This document shows, piece by piece, positions 1,841-58,490 of a DNA stretch of 64,000 bases (position 1 is its first letter; every line of letters begins with the position of its first letter). The notes under the pieces were generated by a model, which saw only the letters and a list, made by a program, of their open reading frames with translations, made no database searches and had not been told where the DNA came from. The DNA is taken from positions 32,001-96,000 of the IMG/VR virus record IMGVR_UViG_3300025676_000004. One strand, 5' to 3'. A program made the translations under genes and the position numbers. The stretch comes from a virus. Lineage: Duplodnaviria > Caudoviricetes.

Positions 1841-3673
1841 ATGTCAATACTTGTACTATTAAAAACCGCAGGAGATTCTTCAACAGCATTATCCGATTTA
1901 ACAATCAAAAAGGATAGTGTTCTTGGTATTTCTTCGTTGGTTGCCGAACAAGTTCCAGATTTTGTTCGAGTGGACCATCCCAGAATGGTAACATTTATGG
2001 AAGCATATTATGAATGGATGGAACAAAAAAATGAAACACTTCATAGTACATTTGTTCTTAGGGATTTTGCAGATGTAGATGATACTATAAGTAATTTTAT
2101 AAAACACTTCAAGACACAATATCTTGACAGATTCCCGCAAAGTCTTGCTTATGACCAAAATACAAATTCCGCAGTCGATGAAAAAAGACTAATTAAGCGT
2201 ATTAAAGAATTCTATAGAGCAAAGGGTACAGAAAAGTCATATAAACTTCTCTTTAAAATTCTTCAAGATGCAACAATTACAGATTTCTATTATCCAAAAA
2301 CAGATATTGTAAAATCATCTAATGGTAAATGGATAGAGAATAAAAGTATTAAAGTTTCCTTAACAAATAAAGACGAAATTTGGAATGCAAAAAACACCAC
2401 AATTGTCCAAAAATCAGAAGCGGGTGAAGTTTTTGCAACTGGAACAGTTCGTGGTGTAAGAAGATATGAAACACAATCTTCTACAGTGGCAGAATTAGTA
2501 ATTGATGAAATTAATGGTAAGTTCCGAGTAAACAAAAATGTACATTTTGATGTTGGTGGAAATACTGCTGAGTTTACTGAAAGTACATATTCAGTAATTG
2601 AAAATATAAAAACCTACAATGATAAAGGTGATAATCCTGTAAGGGGAAGTGGATATAAAATAGGAGAGAAAGTGACACTCTCAAATGCAACAGGCGGAAC
2701 AGATGCATTTGGTTTAATTTCTGAAATTGATGGTAAAGGTGGAATCATATCTGTTGAAATTATAAACTCTGGTATATCTTATAAAGATACCGACCCGATA
2801 ACTTTTAATGTTGCATCTTTGGGTGGAACTGGCGCAGGACTTACTGCATCTATTGGTGCAATGACATCATATAGTGGATACTATTTCAACACACAAGGTC
2901 AACCAAGTTCCAATAAGAGAATGTTTGATAATTATTTTTACCAAGACTTCTCATATGAAATAAAAACAAACATTGCATTAAAATCATATAAGGATACTAT
3001 CTTAGATTTAGTTCATCCTTCTGGAACAAAATTGTTCAATATGATGTTGATGAAAAATACTCATCCTGTATCTACAAAATATAAAACGACAGCAAAACCC
3101 TTTGAGATTTCTATTCTTGGTCACTATACTCCCTATACTTGGAATACCGCAGAAAATCTACGGCATAATAGTCAGAGTGTGGACTTATACCCAGTTGGTT
3201 ATAATCCAACCATAGGAACTGTAAATGAATCTGGTGCTACTGCACATTCTGGAACTACAGCAAGTGGTAGGAGTGGTTCTTATTGGGGATTGGTTTATAA
3301 TGATTATGCGGGACGAACATCACAAAACGATAGCAACACGGGCGGAAATACATTTGCATATGATTTGGGGGTCGGTGGTACTTGGGATGCAGGGACAACA
3401 GGACCACTTTGGTATTTAAGTCAAGGTATATTCTTCACAGCAGGAACAGGTGGAGCATCAGCCTCATATGAATTTCTTGGAACTGCCGATGCAGGTGACT
3501 TTGATAATAACGGTTCATATTGGGTGATATATCCCCACCCAAATATAAGAGGCATAGATAATATACCATCTGGGTGTAGTTTTTCCGCAGTTAAGATGAA
3601 TCCATTCTTCTATATTGATAGAGGAGAAACTGGTGGAATCGAAACGGAATTTTCAACTAATACACCTACATAG
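1841..3673 (+). CDS. gp7: baseplate wedge subunit, gp7-like
   Basis: QVPDFVRVDHP, FYRAKGTEKSYKLLF, YFYQDFSYEI, LVHPSG motifs; lies between gp6 and gp8. Confidence 0.75.
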   Translation: MSILVLLKTAGDSSTALSDLTIKKDSVLGISSLVAEQVPDFVRVDHPRMVTFMEAYYEWMEQKNETLHSTFVLRDFADVDDTISNFIKHFKTQYLDRFPQSLAYDQNTNSAVDEKRLIKRIKEFYRAKGTEKSYKLLFKILQDATITDFYYPKTDIVKSSNGKWIENKSIKVSLTNKDEIWNAKNTTIVQKSEAGEVFATGTVRGVRRYETQSSTVAELVIDEINGKFRVNKNVHFDVGGNTAEFTESTYSVIENIKTYNDKGDNPVRGSGYKIGEKVTLSNATGGTDAFGLISEIDGKGGIISVEIINSGISYKDTDPITFNVASLGGTGAGLTASIGAMTSYSGYYFNTQGQPSSNKRMFDNYFYQDFSYEIKTNIALKSYKDTILDLVHPSGTKLFNMMLMKNTHPVSTKYKTTAKPFEISILGHYTPYTWNTAENLRHNSQSVDLYPVGYNPTIGTVNESGATAHSGTTASGRSGSYWGLVYNDYAGRTSQNDSNTGGNTFAYDLGVGGTWDAGTTGPLWYLSQGIFFTAGTGGASASYEFLGTADAGDFDNNGSYWVIYPHPNIRGIDNIPSGCSFSAVKMNPFFYIDRGETGGIETEFSTNTPT

Positions 3674-3692
3674 GTGATATGGAGAGGTTTTA

Positions 3693-5708
3693 ATGGTAGC
3701 AACTGGCGACAATTCAGTTTTCAAACACGGACTAAGGAGAAGCATTGTAGAATCCTTTGTTGAGGGTTTTGATTTTAAATCCAATGATAGGTATTTTCTG
3801 TTTGTAGGAAAAGTTGACGGATGGACAGGTGGTGATGTTATACCATCACTTACTGATAGTCGTTCCGAAGATGTTGATATTTGGCGAAATATTGTTGGTA
3901 TAAAACAAATAGACAGAAACAGTATTTTCTATATGATTCCAAAATATGAATGGACTAACGGCATTAAGTATACAATGTATGACGATACCGTGGATTTGAC
4001 TGATAAGAAATTTTATGTTTTAAATTCTGAATATAATGTATACAAGTGCATACATAACAACAATCAATTGTCTTCTGTCGAACCCTCTGGTATAAAAGTT
4101 GATGGTAATATAACAACATCAGATGGTTATGTGTGGAAATATATGTACACAATTCCAGAACCACATCGATATCACATTGATGATAATCTAATTCCAGTAA
4201 ATATCGTTTCTTCAAATGGTTCATCAACAGAAACTAATAATCAATGGAAAGTACAAAACAATTCTATAAATGGAGCAATAGAATATATTTATATTGACCA
4301 ATCCACAGTTGGTGTAAACTGGGATAGTGCTTTGGTGATTCCACACAACCCAACAGTAAACTTAACATCAGATAATTCGTTGTCTGGTGCAACAGGAATT
4401 TCATTAAATTCTACACATCTTCAATCAGATGATGATTATAATGGATTGGTTATAACTGTAACAAGTGGAAATGGTTCTGGTCAAAGAAGAATAATTACCG
4501 ATTATGTTGGTGGTTCTGACAATATGGTAAAATTTGACACACCCCTAACAAAAGAAGTACCTATAAATAGTAATTATGAAATTGCCCCAAGGATAACAAT
4601 TTATGGTGACGGTGTTTCAGCAGATGCATATATTGATTTGTATGATTATGATGCTGATTATGCTACACGAAAACAAATTGAAAGAATTGCGATTGCAAAT
4701 AAAGGTAAAAATTATACCTACGCAACTGTAGAATTTACTCCAATTACCGTTTCTGCAAGCATGGATAACGGTGTAACCGCAGATGCTCGACCAATTATAT
4801 CACCTCAAGGTGGTCATGGTTCAAATGCTGTTAGAGAATTAGATTGCACTTCGCTGTTAGTGACTGTTAATATTGACCAGAATGAAAACAACGACTTCCT
4901 TCCAGAAAATGAAATTCGACAATATGGAATTTTAAAGAATCCAATTTTAAATGATACAGATTCTCAGTATCTGGACATAAACGGAAATCCACATAGAGTT
5001 GCAGGGTTAGAAGCATCATTAAAAACGACATTAGAAATTTCCCCAATAAACTCAGAAGCATTTTTACCAGAAACATTATTTACAATTGGAAAGTATATCA
5101 TTGGTAAAGAATCAAAAGCAAATGCCAAGATTGAAAATTGGAGTCCTTCATTAAATAATAATCGTGGCATTCTTACTATAAGTAAATTGAATGGAAATTT
5201 CATTACACCAGTTGATTCATCTGCAACAGGTGAAGGAATTGTTGAATTTGAGCAATCAGGAGATAGTTGGGATTTCAGTACAGTCCAAGTGGCCTCCGTG
5301 TCGGGATTTGATAACATTTATGCCAATACTGTTCCCACATATAATTGTACTTGGACTCTTGGTATTTCGGGGGATTCCCTCACTACTAGTTCATTTCCAA
5401 TTGATATCGGAGTTACTGGGGGGAGTGCTACCACAGGACCGCAAGAACCAACTGGATTGTGTTTGAATTGGGTGGTAGATGACACTGGAACAGGCGGAAC
5501 ATTGACACTAACCGAAGCAATTGGTATATTTAATACTGGTGATTCTATTGGAAGTTCTTCGTATTCTTCCACAACTTCTGTTATAAATAATATAACACAA
5601 CCAGAAATCAAACAAAATACTGGCGAAATAATATATGCTCAGAATATGAAACCAGTTGAAAGAGAACAAGAACAACGAGAACAATATCAGATTATTCTGA
5701 AATTCTAG
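3693..5708 (+). CDS. gp8: baseplate wedge subunit gp8
   Basis: FYVLNSEYNVYKCI, DGYVWKYMY, ISPQGGHGSNAVREL motifs. Confidence 0.88.
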   Translation: MVATGDNSVFKHGLRRSIVESFVEGFDFKSNDRYFLFVGKVDGWTGGDVIPSLTDSRSEDVDIWRNIVGIKQIDRNSIFYMIPKYEWTNGIKYTMYDDTVDLTDKKFYVLNSEYNVYKCIHNNNQLSSVEPSGIKVDGNITTSDGYVWKYMYTIPEPHRYHIDDNLIPVNIVSSNGSSTETNNQWKVQNNSINGAIEYIYIDQSTVGVNWDSALVIPHNPTVNLTSDNSLSGATGISLNSTHLQSDDDYNGLVITVTSGNGSGQRRIITDYVGGSDNMVKFDTPLTKEVPINSNYEIAPRITIYGDGVSADAYIDLYDYDADYATRKQIERIAIANKGKNYTYATVEFTPITVSASMDNGVTADARPIISPQGGHGSNAVRELDCTSLLVTVNIDQNENNDFLPENEIRQYGILKNPILNDTDSQYLDINGNPHRVAGLEASLKTTLEISPINSEAFLPETLFTIGKYIIGKESKANAKIENWSPSLNNNRGILTISKLNGNFITPVDSSATGEGIVEFEQSGDSWDFSTVQVASVSGFDNIYANTVPTYNCTWTLGISGDSLTTSSFPIDIGVTGGSATTGPQEPTGLCLNWVVDDTGTGGTLTLTEAIGIFNTGDSIGSSSYSSTTSVINNITQPEIKQNTGEIIYAQNMKPVEREQEQREQYQIILKF

Positions 5709-5725
5709 CCTAGAAGGTTTAACGA

Positions 5726-8700
5726 ATGACACTAGAGAAATCAAGATTTAATATCGACCCATACTATGATGACTTTGATGAAACTAAAAAGTTTCTTCAA
5801 ATTTTATTTAAGCCAGGTTATTCTATTCAAGCAAGAGAATTAACGCAACTTCAAAGTATACTTAGTAATCAAATGGGCAGATTTGCAGACCATATGTTTG
5901 AAGAAGGTGATGTCATTCAAGGTGGTGGTATAACTGAACGAAAATTAAAGTTTGTTAGGTTGGAATCAGGAACAACTACAGACATTGACGAGTTGGTTGG
6001 ATATAATTTAAAATATACACATACCGTTTCTGATACATCAGAAGGTTTAGAGGATGATGTTCTTACTGGAACAGAAACAGAAATTATCGGTAAAGTAATA
6101 TTCGCATTAGATTCAACTTCTGGTGACCCCTATAAGATTTTGTTCATCGATATTCTTCAAGGTTCGCAAGATGAAAATTCTGAATTTTCTGCCGGTCAAG
6201 AAAATATAACAACAACAAATCCAAACATAAATCCAACACTTAAAATTAAAGATGCAAATTCGGTGGGTGACTCAACAGGTTCTTCTACGGGCGAAGCAAT
6301 AGTAATTTCCATAGAACAAGGATTGTTTTATGTAAATGGTTATTTTGTAATGAGTACCGCACAGTCCATTGCCGCATTTGAAACTGAATCACTTGTACGC
6401 AAATTTACACCTGAAAACAGAACATTGTCAATTGGATTTAGTGTTAATAGGGAAATTGAAACATCAACTACTGATGTTACTTTGCGTGACCCCTCACAAG
6501 GTTCATATAATTATAATGCGCCTGGTTCTGACAGATATAAAATTGATTTAGTAATATCTCAAATTCCATATATCTTTGACGAGCAAGGATATAGAACAGA
6601 TTTTGATACTGACAACTATTTTGAATTTGCACGAATTATCAAAGGTCAGACATTCAAAACTTTAAAATATCCAGAATATGCACAACTAGAAGAAACTTTA
6701 GCAAGAAGAACTTATGATGAATCTGGTCACTATACAGTTAGACCATTTGGTATTGAAACAATAGATTATAATGAAGTTTGGGACCCTGCGGTAACAGGAA
6801 GAACCGACCATTATAATTATCTTGCAGTAGGATTACAAACAGGTAAAGCATATGTTCGTGGTTATGAGTTTGAATTACAAAATACCGAACATCTTGTTGC
6901 AAAGAAAGCAAGAACAACAATAAAACAAAACGATAGAACCATCGACATTGACTTTGGTAATTATGTTTTGGTTGAGCATAATATAGATGGTACTACTCCA
7001 TTGTTTCAATTAGATGGAGCAATGAACGAAAATAATATGAACCTTGTTGGTGGTGATGCTATCCCAGAATATAAAAAAGTAAATTTATCTATAGTGGGTA
7101 GTATTGGTGAGATGACACCAATTGGTTGTGCTAGAATATTCCAGATTGCACCTCACGCATATGACCAAGGTACTTTGGGTGTTGGTACAACATATAGAGT
7201 ATATCTTAATGATATTGTTTTTGGTTCAGATGCAGGCCTGCCCGCATCGGCAGATTTAATGACAATGCACGATGTTGCTTATATTTCTGACCCAATTTCA
7301 GGTAAGAAACTTTTCAAACTTTACATTAAATCTGGAAATGAAAAGAACGATGGATTGTATAGCAAAGGACAAACATCCCTTCTATTCAGAGTACCTGTTG
7401 GTAATACCGTAAAAGAAGTAACTGGTCTTGATTATTATGCACAACGAGATTTCATGTTTGACTTGACAGAGAGTGGTGGGACATGGTCTGGAACTATTTC
7501 AGCGCCAGCAGGAACTAATTGGCAAGGAAGCGGTGACATTAATGACATAACTAACATTGATGAATATATGGTTGCAGTCGATGGTTATATTTTCAATATG
7601 AATCCCGCATCCACTGGTGATTATGGTGGAAACAATTTAGTAGCAGATTCATCTTCAACTTCATTAACTGTAAATCTAATATCAACTGCAACAAACACTT
7701 GGTCGGGTACAAAGAAAGGTTATCTGTTAGCAAATATTCGCATCAATGCAGATGACGAAATTGTTGGTGGGGAATCTTCAACAATTAGAAAGAAAATATT
7801 AAAACGGCACACCGTAAATATTGCAAACAATAATAATGCAGATGGAACTTCCACAATGTGGAACAGTACCCTTGCAAATGGTTGGGGAATCAATCTTGGA
7901 TACTCTGATATCTTTATGCTTGAAAAGGTAGAAGAAATCGGAACAGGTAATAATATTACAAATGATTTTTCACTGAATAATGGACAAACAAGGCATTTAT
8001 ATGACCACGGTTCTATTGTATTAGACAGCGGCAGTGTCGGTGGTACAGGTGGTGTTGAAAATTCTTGGGCACAACCTGGCGCAGGATTCAAAGTAACATT
8101 CTTATATTTTGACCATCAAACATTCGATGGTGGTTTGGATTCCACCGACTATACAACTTTGAAATATCCTTGTGTTGTAAATTCATACATTCACAATGAA
8201 CACGAAGTCACAGAATTTGATAATGGTGGGGTTACTGCCGAATTTGGTAAAGTTGGTGGAGATATTCCTGCTGAACTCTCCGCATATAATTATATTCCTA
8301 TGTTCTCCGATGACAAAGTTGGTCAAACATTAGAACTAAATGATGCAATTGACTTTCGACCAATTAAGGTTGGGGGATGGGACACAAGCCACGCAGAATC
8401 TGGTAAAATTCGTGGTGTTTGGACACCTCAAGACGGTAAACTATTTTTCTGTGATTATGAAAGTTACTTACCAAGAATTGATAAGTTAGTTCTCACCAAA
8501 GACAGAGAATTTAAAATTCTTGAAGGTGTTCCTTCTCTAACACCATTTCCACCAGAACATAATCCAAATGATATGATGGTTCTATATGAATTAAATTGGA
8601 ATCCATACACATTTAATGCAGATGATGTTTCTGTTGAATATCAAGACAATCAAAGATATACAATGGAAATGATTGGTGAACTTGATAATAGAATTAAAGA

Positions 8701-11209
8701 ATTAGAACGAACCACAACATTATCTGCAAATGAATTAGAAACCAAAATAGAAGCCAAATCACACGGTGATAAATTCATTAATGTTATGGCATCTGAAGGG
8801 TTTACTACTTTGCTTTCATCTTCAGTTGAAAGTGCAGAACATAATGTTTCATTCGATAGGGAAAAAGGATTGATGCACCCCGCACAATCATTTACCAATA
8901 TCAATTTAAATGTACATAAGTCTAAATCACTACCAGATGGTATTACTTCATCTGGTGATAATATTTACACATTAACACCAACATCAACAACTGTATCAAC
9001 AGTAAACAACCTTACAGGTAATATTGTACTATATCCGAATCCCTTCTCAAAAACTAATTGGGTTGGTAATCTTAAACTATCCCCATCATCGGACGATTGG
9101 TTCGATGTTACAAAATCACCAAAAATTATAAGTAACGAAGATTCGTCTAATGACACATACTTACTAGCAGTAAAAAGAAAAACAAAAGGTATGAATAGAT
9201 GGGCGTGGGGCATTCCTTGGATTGCTGGATGGTTACATCATCAACCAAGACACAAATCATATGATGATTTTGGCGGATTTAAAAAGTGGAATAGTATGAA
9301 GAATATAAATAATTCCACAATAACAGGAACTAAAATATACAAGAAACACTTTAACAACTACAAAAAGGCTTGTACAAATTCGGGTGGTGGTATAAATTGT
9401 GCTGTATGGATGACAGCAAATCACAGCAAACTAAAAGATAGAGGATATTTCTCAGGTAGTAAGCAAGGAAATAAAGTAGTTGATAATAGTATTAAGAATA
9501 AAGTACGAGCAAAAGAAGTTACTCTTACTTCAGTAAACATGAAACCCAATACTAGATACTGGGTATTTATTGATGGAAAGAAAATTACAGAAACAGTTTC
9601 CAAATACGGTTACATTAAATCAAGTGATAATAGTATGAGAACTAATTCAAATGGTTCTGCTTCTTGTGTTGTGCAAATTCCAGAAAACAATCCATACTAC
9701 TCAGGTAGCATTTTGTTTAGAATGACAGATTCAAAAACAAATGTTGCATCACTTGCAACAACTACATCCGAATCATTCTTTGTTGTAAGGGGTAATGTAA
9801 AATCATCAGAAGGTATAATTAACTGTACTAGAGAAATCACAGCAAAGCGTGATAGTGCAAATAACGAACGAATTACTCAGGATTCCCTAAGCAACGCAAA
9901 AGGACAAGTATTAAGTGATGTTGCAGATTACTTCGATTCAATGGCACAAATTATTGAAATTGATAGTACACAATATCCAAAGGGCGTATTTGCTACTAGT
10001 GTAGATTTATTCTTCCGAGATTTAGATAGTGGGAATTTGCCCTTTAGTGTAGAACTCCGTCCATTGATAAATGATGCACCACATCCGACAACACCAATTC
10101 CATTGTCGGATGTTACAAAAACATCAGGATTCACATCCAATAAAAATGGTCCAGATACAAGTTCACCAACAAGATTTGAATTTTCTTCTCCTGTATTTTT
10201 AGAAAGTGGAAGATATGCGTTAATGATAAAAACAAATAGTACCAAATATACCTTATGGGGAACAGAATTTGGTAAAAAGGGTTTGACTGCGGATGGTTCT
10301 GCTACAAGTAGTGATGTTGAAAAACAACCATATGTTGGGAGTTTATATCTACCACAAAATAACGGTTCACGATATAAAAATACAAATCAAAATGCAATGT
10401 TTAGATTAAATAGAGCAACATATACAATAAACTCAGAAAATACAATGCACCTTCAAGGAGCAACTGCCGATACAATTAATGCTGACAACGAAGTAGTTTC
10501 AACACCAGATTATCATACAGTAACTCTATCAACAGAGTATATTTCTGACCCAGTTACAAGTTTAAAATATTATATGAAGGACGGAACAAATTCCGTTCAA
10601 GTATTGTCTAATGATATTACTGAACTTTCAAAAAGAAAAACCTTTGATTTAGGAAATCAAACAGCAACAGACGAATCTATTAGTGAAGTTATTATGAGTA
10701 CATCTGATGCAAATATAACTCCTGTAGTTGATATGGATAGATTGAGTATGGTAGTAGCAAAGAATGAAATGTCTTCAGACTTATCAAAGGAATTGCTACC
10801 AGATGCTCCAACATCTTCCACTCCAGTTGCACGATATATTGGTAAAATTATCAATACTGGTAACGAAGCAAATTATGTTAGAGTATCGTTTGAAGCATCT
10901 AAACTATATGGAACAGATATCAAATTATATGCAAAAACTGCAAATGATGATACAGACATTACGACAAATCCATACGAAGAACTTTCGGGTGAATTAAGTA
11001 ATGATTCAATTCCAGCATCATCAAGTAAAGATGAATTTTATTCATATAGATTCTATCTCAAAAAACCAGAAGGATTTGCTAATTTCTTAGTTAAATTGGT
11101 TCTTACTGGCGACCCATCCAAATCAGATGTTCCAAGAGTAAAAAATCTCAAAACATATGCATTATATGACCCAGATATTGATACTACTACTTCACAAGGA
11201 ATCATCTGA
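5726..11209 (+). CDS. large virion structural protein, VrlC/DUF4815-like
   Basis: PYYDDFDETKKFLQILFKPGYSIQARELTQLQS, NAPGSDRYKI, LARRTYDESG, GKAYVRGYE motifs; 1827 aa; follows gp8 as in marine T4-like phages. Confidence 0.85.
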   Translation: MTLEKSRFNIDPYYDDFDETKKFLQILFKPGYSIQARELTQLQSILSNQMGRFADHMFEEGDVIQGGGITERKLKFVRLESGTTTDIDELVGYNLKYTHTVSDTSEGLEDDVLTGTETEIIGKVIFALDSTSGDPYKILFIDILQGSQDENSEFSAGQENITTTNPNINPTLKIKDANSVGDSTGSSTGEAIVISIEQGLFYVNGYFVMSTAQSIAAFETESLVRKFTPENRTLSIGFSVNREIETSTTDVTLRDPSQGSYNYNAPGSDRYKIDLVISQIPYIFDEQGYRTDFDTDNYFEFARIIKGQTFKTLKYPEYAQLEETLARRTYDESGHYTVRPFGIETIDYNEVWDPAVTGRTDHYNYLAVGLQTGKAYVRGYEFELQNTEHLVAKKARTTIKQNDRTIDIDFGNYVLVEHNIDGTTPLFQLDGAMNENNMNLVGGDAIPEYKKVNLSIVGSIGEMTPIGCARIFQIAPHAYDQGTLGVGTTYRVYLNDIVFGSDAGLPASADLMTMHDVAYISDPISGKKLFKLYIKSGNEKNDGLYSKGQTSLLFRVPVGNTVKEVTGLDYYAQRDFMFDLTESGGTWSGTISAPAGTNWQGSGDINDITNIDEYMVAVDGYIFNMNPASTGDYGGNNLVADSSSTSLTVNLISTATNTWSGTKKGYLLANIRINADDEIVGGESSTIRKKILKRHTVNIANNNNADGTSTMWNSTLANGWGINLGYSDIFMLEKVEEIGTGNNITNDFSLNNGQTRHLYDHGSIVLDSGSVGGTGGVENSWAQPGAGFKVTFLYFDHQTFDGGLDSTDYTTLKYPCVVNSYIHNEHEVTEFDNGGVTAEFGKVGGDIPAELSAYNYIPMFSDDKVGQTLELNDAIDFRPIKVGGWDTSHAESGKIRGVWTPQDGKLFFCDYESYLPRIDKLVLTKDREFKILEGVPSLTPFPPEHNPNDMMVLYELNWNPYTFNADDVSVEYQDNQRYTMEMIGELDNRIKELERTTTLSANELETKIEAKSHGDKFINVMASEGFTTLLSSSVESAEHNVSFDREKGLMHPAQSFTNINLNVHKSKSLPDGITSSGDNIYTLTPTSTTVSTVNNLTGNIVLYPNPFSKTNWVGNLKLSPSSDDWFDVTKSPKIISNEDSSNDTYLLAVKRKTKGMNRWAWGIPWIAGWLHHQPRHKSYDDFGGFKKWNSMKNINNSTITGTKIYKKHFNNYKKACTNSGGGINCAVWMTANHSKLKDRGYFSGSKQGNKVVDNSIKNKVRAKEVTLTSVNMKPNTRYWVFIDGKKITETVSKYGYIKSSDNSMRTNSNGSASCVVQIPENNPYYSGSILFRMTDSKTNVASLATTTSESFFVVRGNVKSSEGIINCTREITAKRDSANNERITQDSLSNAKGQVLSDVADYFDSMAQIIEIDSTQYPKGVFATSVDLFFRDLDSGNLPFSVELRPLINDAPHPTTPIPLSDVTKTSGFTSNKNGPDTSSPTRFEFSSPVFLESGRYALMIKTNSTKYTLWGTEFGKKGLTADGSATSSDVEKQPYVGSLYLPQNNGSRYKNTNQNAMFRLNRATYTINSENTMHLQGATADTINADNEVVSTPDYHTVTLSTEYISDPVTSLKYYMKDGTNSVQVLSNDITELSKRKTFDLGNQTATDESISEVIMSTSDANITPVVDMDRLSMVVAKNEMSSDLSKELLPDAPTSSTPVARYIGKIINTGNEANYVRVSFEASKLYGTDIKLYAKTANDDTDITTNPYEELSGELSNDSIPASSSKDEFYSYRFYLKKPEGFANFLVKLVLTGDPSKSDVPRVKNLKTYALYDPDIDTTTSQGII

Positions 11210-57006: not shown

Positions 57007-57113
57007 AAATTGTTGTAAGAGAACAACTACCACCAAAAATTACAGTATCTTCAAAGAATAGTATTGTAATCAAACAGAAAGATGATAGAATACTTGTAAT
57101 CAAAACTGTTTAA
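57003..57113 (+). CDS. 36 aa hypothetical peptide (not in ORF track)
   Basis: ATGA overlap with the previous stop; MKIVVREQLPPKITVSSKNSIVIKQKDDRILVIKTV. Confidence 0.45.
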   Translation: MKIVVREQLPPKITVSSKNSIVIKQKDDRILVIKTV

Positions 57114-57133
57114 CTTAGTGAATATGGTATAGA

Positions 57134-57619
57134 ATGAATTACAACAACATCGTTGAAGATATTATAAAAGCATCAGAGTCAGCAAGAAAAATTGGTATTA
57201 CTAATATTCTTCAACCTGGTCTTGTTAAAGAAATGATAATTGCGGATATACTAAACCACAAAATCATTCTTACCAAGCACGATGCTGATGCACATCACCC
57301 AAACGACCCAACAGAAAAATATGAATACCTCTCCTGTAAAGAAGGTGGCAGTGGTCAACTTGACAGAATGTTCAAGACACCAATAGATAAACGAGAAAAG
57401 TCTCTCGACAGAATCTCAAGAAACTCTATGATATACTATGCAGTATTCTACAAATCAAACCAAATTAAGTGTAAAGTAATATACAAAATAGAACCATCAA
57501 TTATGCTTCAAGAAGCAAATAGGCAATTGGATGCAAGTTCAAATGATATTGCCCATTTAGGATTTTCCATTTCTTGGGTAAAAAAGAATGGTACGGTTGT
57601 ATATGAAGATGTTGTTTAA
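57134..57619 (+). CDS. PvuII-fold restriction endonuclease-like protein
   Basis: End-to-end resemblance to R.PvuII as recalled: GITNILQ, DAD..., YEYLS, YAVF, IYKIEP, WVKKNGTVVY; 161 aa. Confidence 0.7.
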   Translation: MNYNNIVEDIIKASESARKIGITNILQPGLVKEMIIADILNHKIILTKHDADAHHPNDPTEKYEYLSCKEGGSGQLDRMFKTPIDKREKSLDRISRNSMIYYAVFYKSNQIKCKVIYKIEPSIMLQEANRQLDASSNDIAHLGFSISWVKKNGTVVYEDVV

Positions 57620-57636
57620 CCCATAAAGGATTTATT

Positions 57637-58170
57637 ATGAATACTAATTTAGATTGTTACCGTTTATATGATGATGCTACTCTACCAGAAAAAGCAACAG
57701 CAGGTTCTGCCTGCTTTGATATTTCTTCTTATCTAAGAGAAGATGTTCTTGTTACTGTTTATGATATGAGTAATGCTAAAATAGAACGAACACCAGAATA
57801 CCATACAATTGATGGAAAAGAAAAACTCTGTTTGCGACTCGACCCTGCTGATAGGGTATTAGTTCCGACAGGAATCATATTCAAAATCCCTTTTGGTTAT
57901 TCTATGAGATTACATACTCGTTCAAGTGTTTCTCTGAAGAAGGGAATTATTATGCCAAACGGTGAAGGTATTATTGACAGTGATTATTATCATCAAACTT
58001 ATGTGATGCTATTGAATGCATCTGCCGATACTGCTTATATTTCAGACAAAGAACGAATCGCCCAAGGTGAATTGGTACAAACAGAATATTATACTATTGA
58101 AGAAACACTCCAAAAACCAGAACAAGTGACCGAACGAGCAGGCGGTTTTGGAAGTACAGGAGTTAATTGA
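57637..58170 (+). CDS. dut: trimeric dUTPase
   Basis: ATAGSACFD, VPTG, RSS, GIIDSDY, ERIAQ, RAGGFGSTG. Confidence 0.95.
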   Translation: MNTNLDCYRLYDDATLPEKATAGSACFDISSYLREDVLVTVYDMSNAKIERTPEYHTIDGKEKLCLRLDPADRVLVPTGIIFKIPFGYSMRLHTRSSVSLKKGIIMPNGEGIIDSDYYHQTYVMLLNASADTAYISDKERIAQGELVQTEYYTIEETLQKPEQVTERAGGFGSTGVN

Positions 58171-58490
58171 TGAACAGACAAGAACTATTCAAATTGCACG
58201 GTGAACTATGCCAAACGGCATTGGACATTATGAAAAAGAAAAATCACGACTATGCAGGACAGGGTGGCGAAACACCATTCGCCAATTTTACTCGGTCGGA
58301 AGCAATGGGCATATGTTCTACCGAACAAGGATTTTTGGTACGGATGTGTGATAAGTTGTCACGACTTTCTACTTTCGCCAGTGCGGGAGAACTCAAAGCA
58401 GATAACGAAAGTTATGAAGATGCCATTTTGGATATCATCAACTACTCTATACTTTTCTATGGATATGTTTCCACAAAAGAAAACAATTGA
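58167..58490 (+). CDS. DUF1599-like (nucleotide-modification-associated) helical protein
   Basis: KKNHDYA...FANF, RMCDKLSRL, ESYEDAILDIINY. Confidence 0.6.
   Translation: MMNRQELFKLHGELCQTALDIMKKKNHDYAGQGGETPFANFTRSEAMGICSTEQGFLVRMCDKLSRLSTFASAGELKADNESYEDAILDIINYSILFYGYVSTKENN

Follow-up and report, generated by a model that had tools for sequence, protein, structure and literature searches.

Viral nucleases that destroy host DNA while sparing viral DNA are known from T4, whose endonucleases EndoII and EndoIV (denA and denB) degrade host DNA while the viral DNA is spared by base modification (hmC), and from chloroviruses, whose restriction–modification (R-M) systems tell viral from host DNA by methylation. 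The marine phage contig described here (G000) carries a nuclease gene for which this discrimination would, unlike in T4 and the chloroviruses, be achieved by sequence alone.

Restriction enzymes without a methyltransferase have been described before. R.PacI of Pseudomonas alcaligenes, as cited in PMC3488263, is a solitary restriction enzyme in a host genome devoid of its TTAATTAA site, and the likeness to our locus lies in an enzyme lacking a methyltransferase and self-protected by an AT-rich palindrome missing from the carrier genome. PacI is, however, an HNH enzyme from a GC-rich bacterium, where few 8-bp AT sites would arise by chance, whereas the phage protein is a PD-(D/E)XK enzyme in a 37%-GC genome with a putative 6-bp AT-only site. 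With 60–128 copies of this site expected by chance, it must have been actively purged from the phage. Palindrome avoidance is an established sequence-level strategy of phages (Rusinov et al. 2018, PMC6286503) and is generally interpreted as protection from host enzymes; in our case the avoided word TATATA tracks a phage-borne enzyme instead. Phages are known to carry solitary restriction endonucleases, of which one survey listed 12 among 831 phages and left them unexplained (Oliveira et al. 2014, PMC4176335). In the open-access literature we found neither a description of a TATATA-specific enzyme nor an account of phage orphan restriction enzymes with site-free genomes, PacI being a bacterial precedent.

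The closest described protein is R.PvuII (Type IIP, CAG^CTG; PF09225; PDB 1pvi, 1f0o, 1ni0, 3ksk), with which the phage nuclease shares the fold, the size, homology over the full length and the catalytic D/E residues; it is likewise small and, by analogy only, a homodimer. It differs in its identity of only ~18%, in an E-Y-L-S-C-K stretch that replaces the E-x-K lysine, in the adenine-type, MboIIA-like methyltransferase that partners its family (M.PvuII is an N4-cytosine enzyme), in that no C-protein was seen with the family, and in its inferred target, TATATA rather than CAGCTG. The phage nuclease is a superfamily relative of R.PvuII and not an isoschizomer. On comparative grounds, it is probably a captured Type IIP enzyme cutting TATATA, with the phage immune to it since its own genome lacks the site.

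Results

Genomic context of the nuclease gene

The window, the whole 64-kb stretch of DNA analysed, comprises bases 32001–96000 of a single 134,816-bp IMG/VR virus contig (G000; CheckV completeness estimate 75%) from an uncultured marine T4-like phage. Its closest cultured kin are cyanomyoviruses, with a gp43 protein just 49% identical. The nuclease ORF is placed between a 142-aa ORF, which ends a glycosyltransferase cluster, and a set of genes comprising dUTPase, a weakly matching DUF1599 gene, a destabilase-type lysozyme and gp43 (Table 1). A preliminary description of the window had listed this ORF together with its dUTPase and DUF1599-like neighbours, all of which we recover, and had read the arrangement as a nucleotide-recycling link. 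The link is positional only: relatives lacking the nuclease retain the dUTPase and DUF1599-like genes, and in one of them (G002) orf142 directly adjoins the dUTPase at the site holding the nuclease in G000. The two genes are thus context and lie outside the nuclease system.

Upstream of the nuclease gene, the leader shows a weak resemblance to a sigma-70 promoter (TTGTAA-16-TAGAAT, with TG), overlapped by a direct repeat, CTTGTAATCAAA(A)C, at 57064–57125 with copies ~40 bp apart. A promoter scan of the leader gave matches no better than chance, and the T4 late-promoter motif TATAAATA was not found within its 127 bp.

Table 1 Features of the nuclease locus and of the methyltransferase-like gene (window coordinates).
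Feature	Position	Strand	Remarks
Methyltransferase-like core gene, 536 aa	39776..41386	+	motif I DPSSGWGGR before motif IV FTSPPYF; PF01555 match
Intergenic leader, 127 bp	57007..57133	+	upstream of nuclease gene
Orphan PvuII-family Type II restriction endonuclease gene	57134..57619	+	ATG start, 161 aa
dUTPase and DUF1599-like gene	57637..58490	+	directly downstream of nuclease; kept in nuclease-free relatives

Homology, fold and conserved residues of the nuclease

Searched as a single sequence, the nuclease yielded no match in Pfam (none at E ≤ 1), NCBIfam or the PDB. A profile built from 50 diverse homologs, in contrast to the single sequence, matched R.PvuII over its full length (positions 10–162 versus 11–157, E 5e-6 to 1e-5) and the tandem single-chain PvuII with an E of 1e-13, aligning D52 with the catalytic D58 of PvuII and E64 with E68. 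The sequence identity lies under the Pfam PF09225 threshold, and one bacterial homolog bears a precomputed PF09225 label. The missing Pfam match together with a profile E-value of ~1e-5 indicates homology at the superfamily level, outside the curated PF09225 family. The AlphaFold model (pLDDT 97.6, pTM 0.90) is predicted to adopt the PvuII fold, as PvuII structures occupied all 11 top ranks in a Foldseek search (E 2e-8, TM 0.64–0.75), followed by BisI-family enzymes. The resemblance to PvuII along the whole protein, recognized in the preliminary description, is therefore genuine though remote, and the structure prediction suggested there returns PvuII as the best fold match.

Also correctly noted there was that the E-L-K of PvuII reads E-Y-L-S-C-K in the phage protein. 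The position of the E-x-K lysine is taken by L66, while K69, offset from it, is invariant even in a phage group of 35–45% identity and may be the catalytic lysine. Invariant throughout the family are YEYLSCK, Q75-x-D77-R78, R93, R96-N97 and H141, and the phage nuclease retains every one of these residues. YEYLSCK, Q-x-D-R, R..RN and H141 are identical between the window protein and the phage homologs of 35–45% identity; these positions are candidate recognition residues and would fit one shared specificity. The S81/H84/H85 region and N140/N141 of PvuII, the base-contacting positions in the PvuII–DNA structures, are not conserved in the alignment. Comparison with a 76%-identical phage copy from Tara Oceans gave a dN of 0.17 and a dS of ~1.7 (dN/dS ~0.1), indicative of an intact gene under strong purifying selection.

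A bacterial R-M operon as source of the phage gene

The nuclease belongs to a large unannotated family with more than 1,200 cluster representatives at ~60–68% identity, carried by at least 224 GTDB species of bacteria and archaea, ranging over Chloroflexota, Planctomycetota, Verrucomicrobiota, Acidobacteriota, Proteobacteria, CPR phyla and one archaeon. At 79 of 80 GTDB bacterial loci, a methyltransferase of 264–275 aa (PF01555) is encoded immediately upstream of the nuclease on the same strand, often overlapping it. The arrangement is that of an orthodox M→R Type II operon, in which the bacterial branch of the nuclease supplies the R gene of a highly mobile pair; separate adjacent R and M genes are thus the arrangement in bacteria and not in the phage. 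The best PDB relative of the partner methyltransferase is M.MboIIA (1.5e-30), followed by CcrM, DpnA and RsrI, with M.PvuII reaching only 7.6e-6. Its motif IV reads D-G-P-Y, the adenine type, whereas the S-P-P-F of M.PvuII is of the N4-cytosine type. The partner can hence be classified from its motifs as an adenine-type beta-class methyltransferase, MboIIA-like and not M.PvuII-like; a search for named or characterised relatives of it returned none.

The preliminary description had seen no methyltransferase next to the phage gene. This holds: a methyltransferase-like ORF lies 16 kb upstream, none is adjacent, and G000 (estimated 75% complete) and the Tara contigs contain no homolog of the partner-type enzyme. 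A maximum-likelihood tree groups the three T4-like phage copies with 100/100 support and places them inside the bacterial R-M-linked clade; this nesting points to a single capture from a bacterial system. The nuclease copies of two T4-like lineages are 76% identical, compared with 48–75% for most core genes. A homolog search of 50,697 deposited phage genome records retrieved none.

On a Chloroflexota chromosome (L001), we observed the R-M pair in a defence island (2095–4122 and 5612–10522), adjoining an AlwI-type endonuclease, a second PF01555 methyltransferase and type III CRISPR (RAMP/Csm1) genes.

The absence of AGCT is a clade trait

The window contains no AGCT, where 206 copies are expected from base composition, 125 ± 11 from dinucleotide shuffles and 54 from a second-order Markov model, and the whole contig is equally devoid of it. 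This upholds the preliminary description, which had reported no AGCT against about 200 predicted and had proposed the Markov comparison as a check. From this void it had gone on to suggest that the nuclease recognizes a site containing AGCT (AGCT itself or CAGCTG), with the phage protected by sequence alone, adding that equal loss of AGCT in relatives without the gene would speak against the idea. The homology to PvuII favours such a site, and a genome without AGCT, hence without CAGCTG, would render this specificity harmless as well.

The distribution of the void does not bear this out. We fetched 80 gp43-related contigs, and almost all with at least 57% gp43 identity had zero AGCT (~45 contigs without the word); counts of GATC, ACGT, CGCG, CCGG and TCGA differed by subclade, and no nuclease was found in the fetched stretch of the 80 contigs. 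Three close relatives, G001 (118.5 kb), G002 (126 kb) and G003 (123 kb; gp43 83% identical), contain no AGCT versus 393–434 expected, and full-length tblastn searches of them with seven family members, all of which recovered the gene in G000, as well as a profile search, detected no nuclease homolog. Conversely, other phages with orphan homologs contain 368 AGCT sites in 320 kb. Absent where the gene is absent and present where the gene is present, AGCT marks a clade by its lack independently of the nuclease, and both AGCT and CAGCTG were rejected as the target. Together with an adenine-type, MboIIA-like partner methyltransferase and the lack of conservation at the PvuII base contacts, these counts make an AGCT-containing site scarcely credible. 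What stands of the earlier proposal is immunity by sequence alone, since a site-free orphan enzyme is well supported, with AGCT not being the site.

More distant relatives do contain AGCT (332 in G004, 264 in G065). The D-arms of tRNA-Arg(tct) and tRNA-Lys(ttt), located past the window end (genome 112658–115163), read GTAACTCAG...AGAGT in place of the usual GTAGCTCAG...AGAGC. These tRNA genes dodge AGCT by a paired D-stem change, which argues for a strong pressure against the word. A search for genes restricted to AGCT-free genomes returned only a DUF5710 ORF without nuclease signature, and no candidate was found for a phage-encoded nuclease accounting for the void. The AGCT void is unrelated to the nuclease gene.

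AGCT is one among many purged palindromes, a point missed in the preliminary description. G000 contains 0 ACGT, 1 GATC (at genome 92422, within gp43), 5 CGCG, 39 CCGG and 98 CATG, and the hexamers TATATA, CTGCAG, GTGCAC, TTCGAA and CTCGAG are at zero. GATC looked promising at first, with 10 of the 18 distant-homolog loci lacking it, but was discarded as a target, as other orphan carriers have 21–79 GATC per locus and the nuclease-free G002 and G003 are also without it. ACGT was discarded as well, being absent alike from G000 and G003 and present in other carriers. As separate observations, G000 is specifically poor in CATG (98 versus 444) and AGTACT (2 versus 22) compared with its closest relative G003, and the non-palindromic GGAACC is at zero in the nuclease-bearing T4-like DNA.

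The absence of TATATA follows the nuclease

Within the window, TATATA occurs 0 times versus 28 ± 5.4 expected from shuffles, whereas ATATAT occurs 40 times versus 40.8 expected; the whole of G000 holds 0 TATATA, versus 60–128 expected, and 79 ATATAT. In five nuclease-free T4-like contigs the TATATA/ATATAT counts are 25/37, 65/83, 62/109, 46/66 and 34/59. A second nuclease-bearing T4-like phage, from Tara Oceans (L008, 9.7 kb), again has no TATATA, with 29 TATAT, 34 ATATA and 11 ATATAT. In its core genes, L008 is nearer to the nuclease-free G001 (gp44 86%, gp62 74%) than to G000 (75% and 60%). G001 shares the epimerase–orf125–rnh gene order, with ~94 bp where L008 carries the nuclease. This kinship of core genes and the empty sites in G001 and G002 indicate clean insertion at two loci, with the TATATA void accompanying the gene.

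A second, unrelated group of phages comprises 18 IMG/VR loci with orphan homologs of 35–45% identity. In its eight whole contigs, of 60–172 kb and together 878 kb long, TATATA is absent and ATATAT occurs 375 times, while each of the 78 relatives lacking the gene at this locus contains TATATA (711 copies in 1.35 Mb, with 986 ATATAT). An unbiased scan of all 4-, 5- and 6-mers in non-redundant DNA of nuclease-bearing phages (320 kb) singled out TATATA, counted twice versus 367 expected from composition or 125 from the Markov model, and missing altogether from 10 of 12 sequences; no 4-mer or 5-mer was missing from every sequence. The nine one-mismatch neighbours of TATATA occur at 0.83–1.22 times their frequency in nuclease-free relatives. 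Phages in general under-represent TATATA mildly (observed/Markov 0.66 at gp43 control loci).

Among the nuclease-free relatives of both phage groups, a term meaning that the gene is not on the available 65–78% of the genome, all phage records being incomplete (18–78%), TATATA-free genomes number 0 of 83. This favours the phage's own enzyme over host restriction alone as keeper of the void. The association between the gene and the TATATA void is tight, and recognition of TATATA, as read from site avoidance, appears the most likely specificity, for which the comparative evidence is strong.

Two carriers retain the word. L023, where alone among the phage copies a methyltransferase adjoins the nuclease, is the first branch of its clade and has 2 TATATA in 46.6 kb; this fits a capture of R and M together, followed by the purge and then by loss of M. 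L021/G088, with an intact-looking nuclease, has 7 TATATA in 114 kb, four of them inside 1.6 kb near one end, and 29 ATATAT, being ~9-fold depleted, not empty.

At the locus where L017 carries its TATATA-linked nuclease, a relative of that phage (L226, ~880–1360) encodes a much more divergent PvuII-like homolog, 26% identical to the window protein, in DNA that does contain TATATA. This homolog may be an allele of other specificity and the locus a hotspot of nuclease swapping.

The methyltransferase-like core gene is not the partner of the nuclease

The methyltransferase-like gene of the window (Table 1), whose N-terminal ~300 aa have no assigned function, is 67–85% identical in four nuclease-free relatives and has no similarity to the bacterial partner methyltransferase. 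Being core in phages without the nuclease and unrelated to the cognate enzyme, it was dismissed as the nuclease's partner; its presence in the AGCT-containing relative G004 also dismissed it as an AGCT-linked gene. Such a gene, with its S-P-P-Y motif, or a base modification involving the DUF1599 neighbourhood, a domain that Pfam describes as nucleotide-modification-associated, could in principle shield the phage DNA in trans and make the lack of sites incidental. We regard this as highly improbable, as there are zero TATATA sites needing protection, a modified genome would not require such a sharp hexamer avoidance, and the gene, dissimilar to the cognate methyltransferase, belongs to the core of the four nuclease-free relatives, which contain TATATA.

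TATATA in bacterial hosts of the system

Across the 30 R-M-bearing bacterial genomes tested, TATATA was without exception less frequent than ATATAT (1539 versus 6824 summed), the ratio of the two falling below 0.1 in 10 of the 30, with a baseline of ~0.4. Four carriers in a first bacterial family (that of G015) show ratios of 0.03–0.16 versus a median of ~0.40 in 23 non-carriers. Three non-carriers of this family, G047, G051 and G053, are purged too (1/477, 18/438 and 19/422), and neither R nor M was detectable in them. They may have lost the system recently, carry an unrelated isoschizomer or be incomplete MAGs, and with purged genomes lacking detectable R and M, the contrast within the first family may reflect one purged clade. 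A second bacterial family shows no depletion (carriers 0.44–0.51 versus non-carriers 0.34–0.57). The evidence for TATATA avoidance on the host side is mixed. Restriction-site avoidance is reportedly tied, according to one paper, to the residence time of an R-M system; if so, a heterogeneous depletion among hosts would be expected.

Host restriction also underlies a different reading of the phage data, in which hosts with a TATATA R-M system imposed the void and the R gene was merely picked up as a silent or irrelevant passenger. The phage copies do nest in a bacterial R-M clade, the genome avoids many other restriction sites, necessarily driven by hosts, and either avoidance or help by a methyltransferase had to precede toleration of an orphan R. 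Yet the gene is under strong purifying selection with every invariant residue kept and persists in two phage clades; the void is absolute, beyond merely strong, in 10 of 12 carriers; and host restriction should have purged some of the 83 nuclease-free relatives, none of which is free of TATATA. We therefore consider a passenger gene unlikely.

Discussion

Homology to PvuII, the fold, the intactness of the gene and the purifying selection acting on it, the linkage of M and R in bacteria and the absence of the partner methyltransferase from the phage are directly supported by the data presented here. As in a solitary restriction enzyme system, G000, at an estimated 75% completeness, lacks a cognate methyltransferase, and its genome is site-free, conditional on TATATA being the site. 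We infer nuclease activity in infection, a blunt cut and a biological role of the enzyme; a dN/dS of ~0.1 and the retention of all invariant residues are indirect signs that it may be active.

For a TATATA-cutting enzyme, the following course of events can be proposed. T4-like marine phages would have captured the R gene once from a bacterial R-M system, and it would have spread between their lineages without M. Its target would be the palindrome TATATA, where the cut may be blunt (TAT^ATA) as in PvuII, and the phage genome would be immune with no TATATA left to cut. For the purge to begin, the phage probably had to pass through a stage with a methyltransferase, like that of L023, or to live in hosts that carried this system. 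The enzyme would attack DNA containing TATATA, whether from an AT-rich host or from co-infecting phages, and with one TATATA every ~0.5–2 kb in the relatives measured, such DNA would be fragmented. The role may be breakdown of host DNA, for shut-off and nucleotide supply, exclusion of rivals or selfish spread.

Selfish spread can be put as a variant of its own, in which the nuclease cuts TATATA-bearing sibling phages during co-infection and thereby favours its own transmission, analogous to the T4 seg/mob endonucleases. The clean presence/absence polymorphism at two loci, the greater identity of the gene than of most core genes between lineages (76% versus 48–75%) and the divergent PvuII-like allele at the same locus in L226 would agree with it; dozens of sites per rival genome would, however, lead to destruction and not to targeted gene conversion, and we hold this variant to be improbable.

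Returning to the wider reading of a captured TATATA enzyme, we find it moderately likely that this PvuII-like branch, present in at least 224 bacterial and archaeal species and in two phage groups, constitutes a TATATA restriction system whose nuclease phages have repeatedly made into a methylase-free weapon by erasing all TATATA from genomes of 130–300 kb, with self and non-self told apart purely in sequence and the avoidance imposed by the phage's own gene, not by the host.

If confirmed, TATATA would be a predicted new Type IIP specificity, an all-A/T hexamer readable from comparative genomics and possibly useful as a reagent. As a method, searching for a word absent solely where an orphan nuclease is present would give access to the specificity of uncharacterised restriction enzymes. 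The phage would provide a clear natural example of a virus that tells its own DNA from foreign DNA by sequence composition, needing neither methylation nor base modification, with the purge following the viral nuclease, and restriction-site avoidance in phages would then not always be the footprint of host enzymes.
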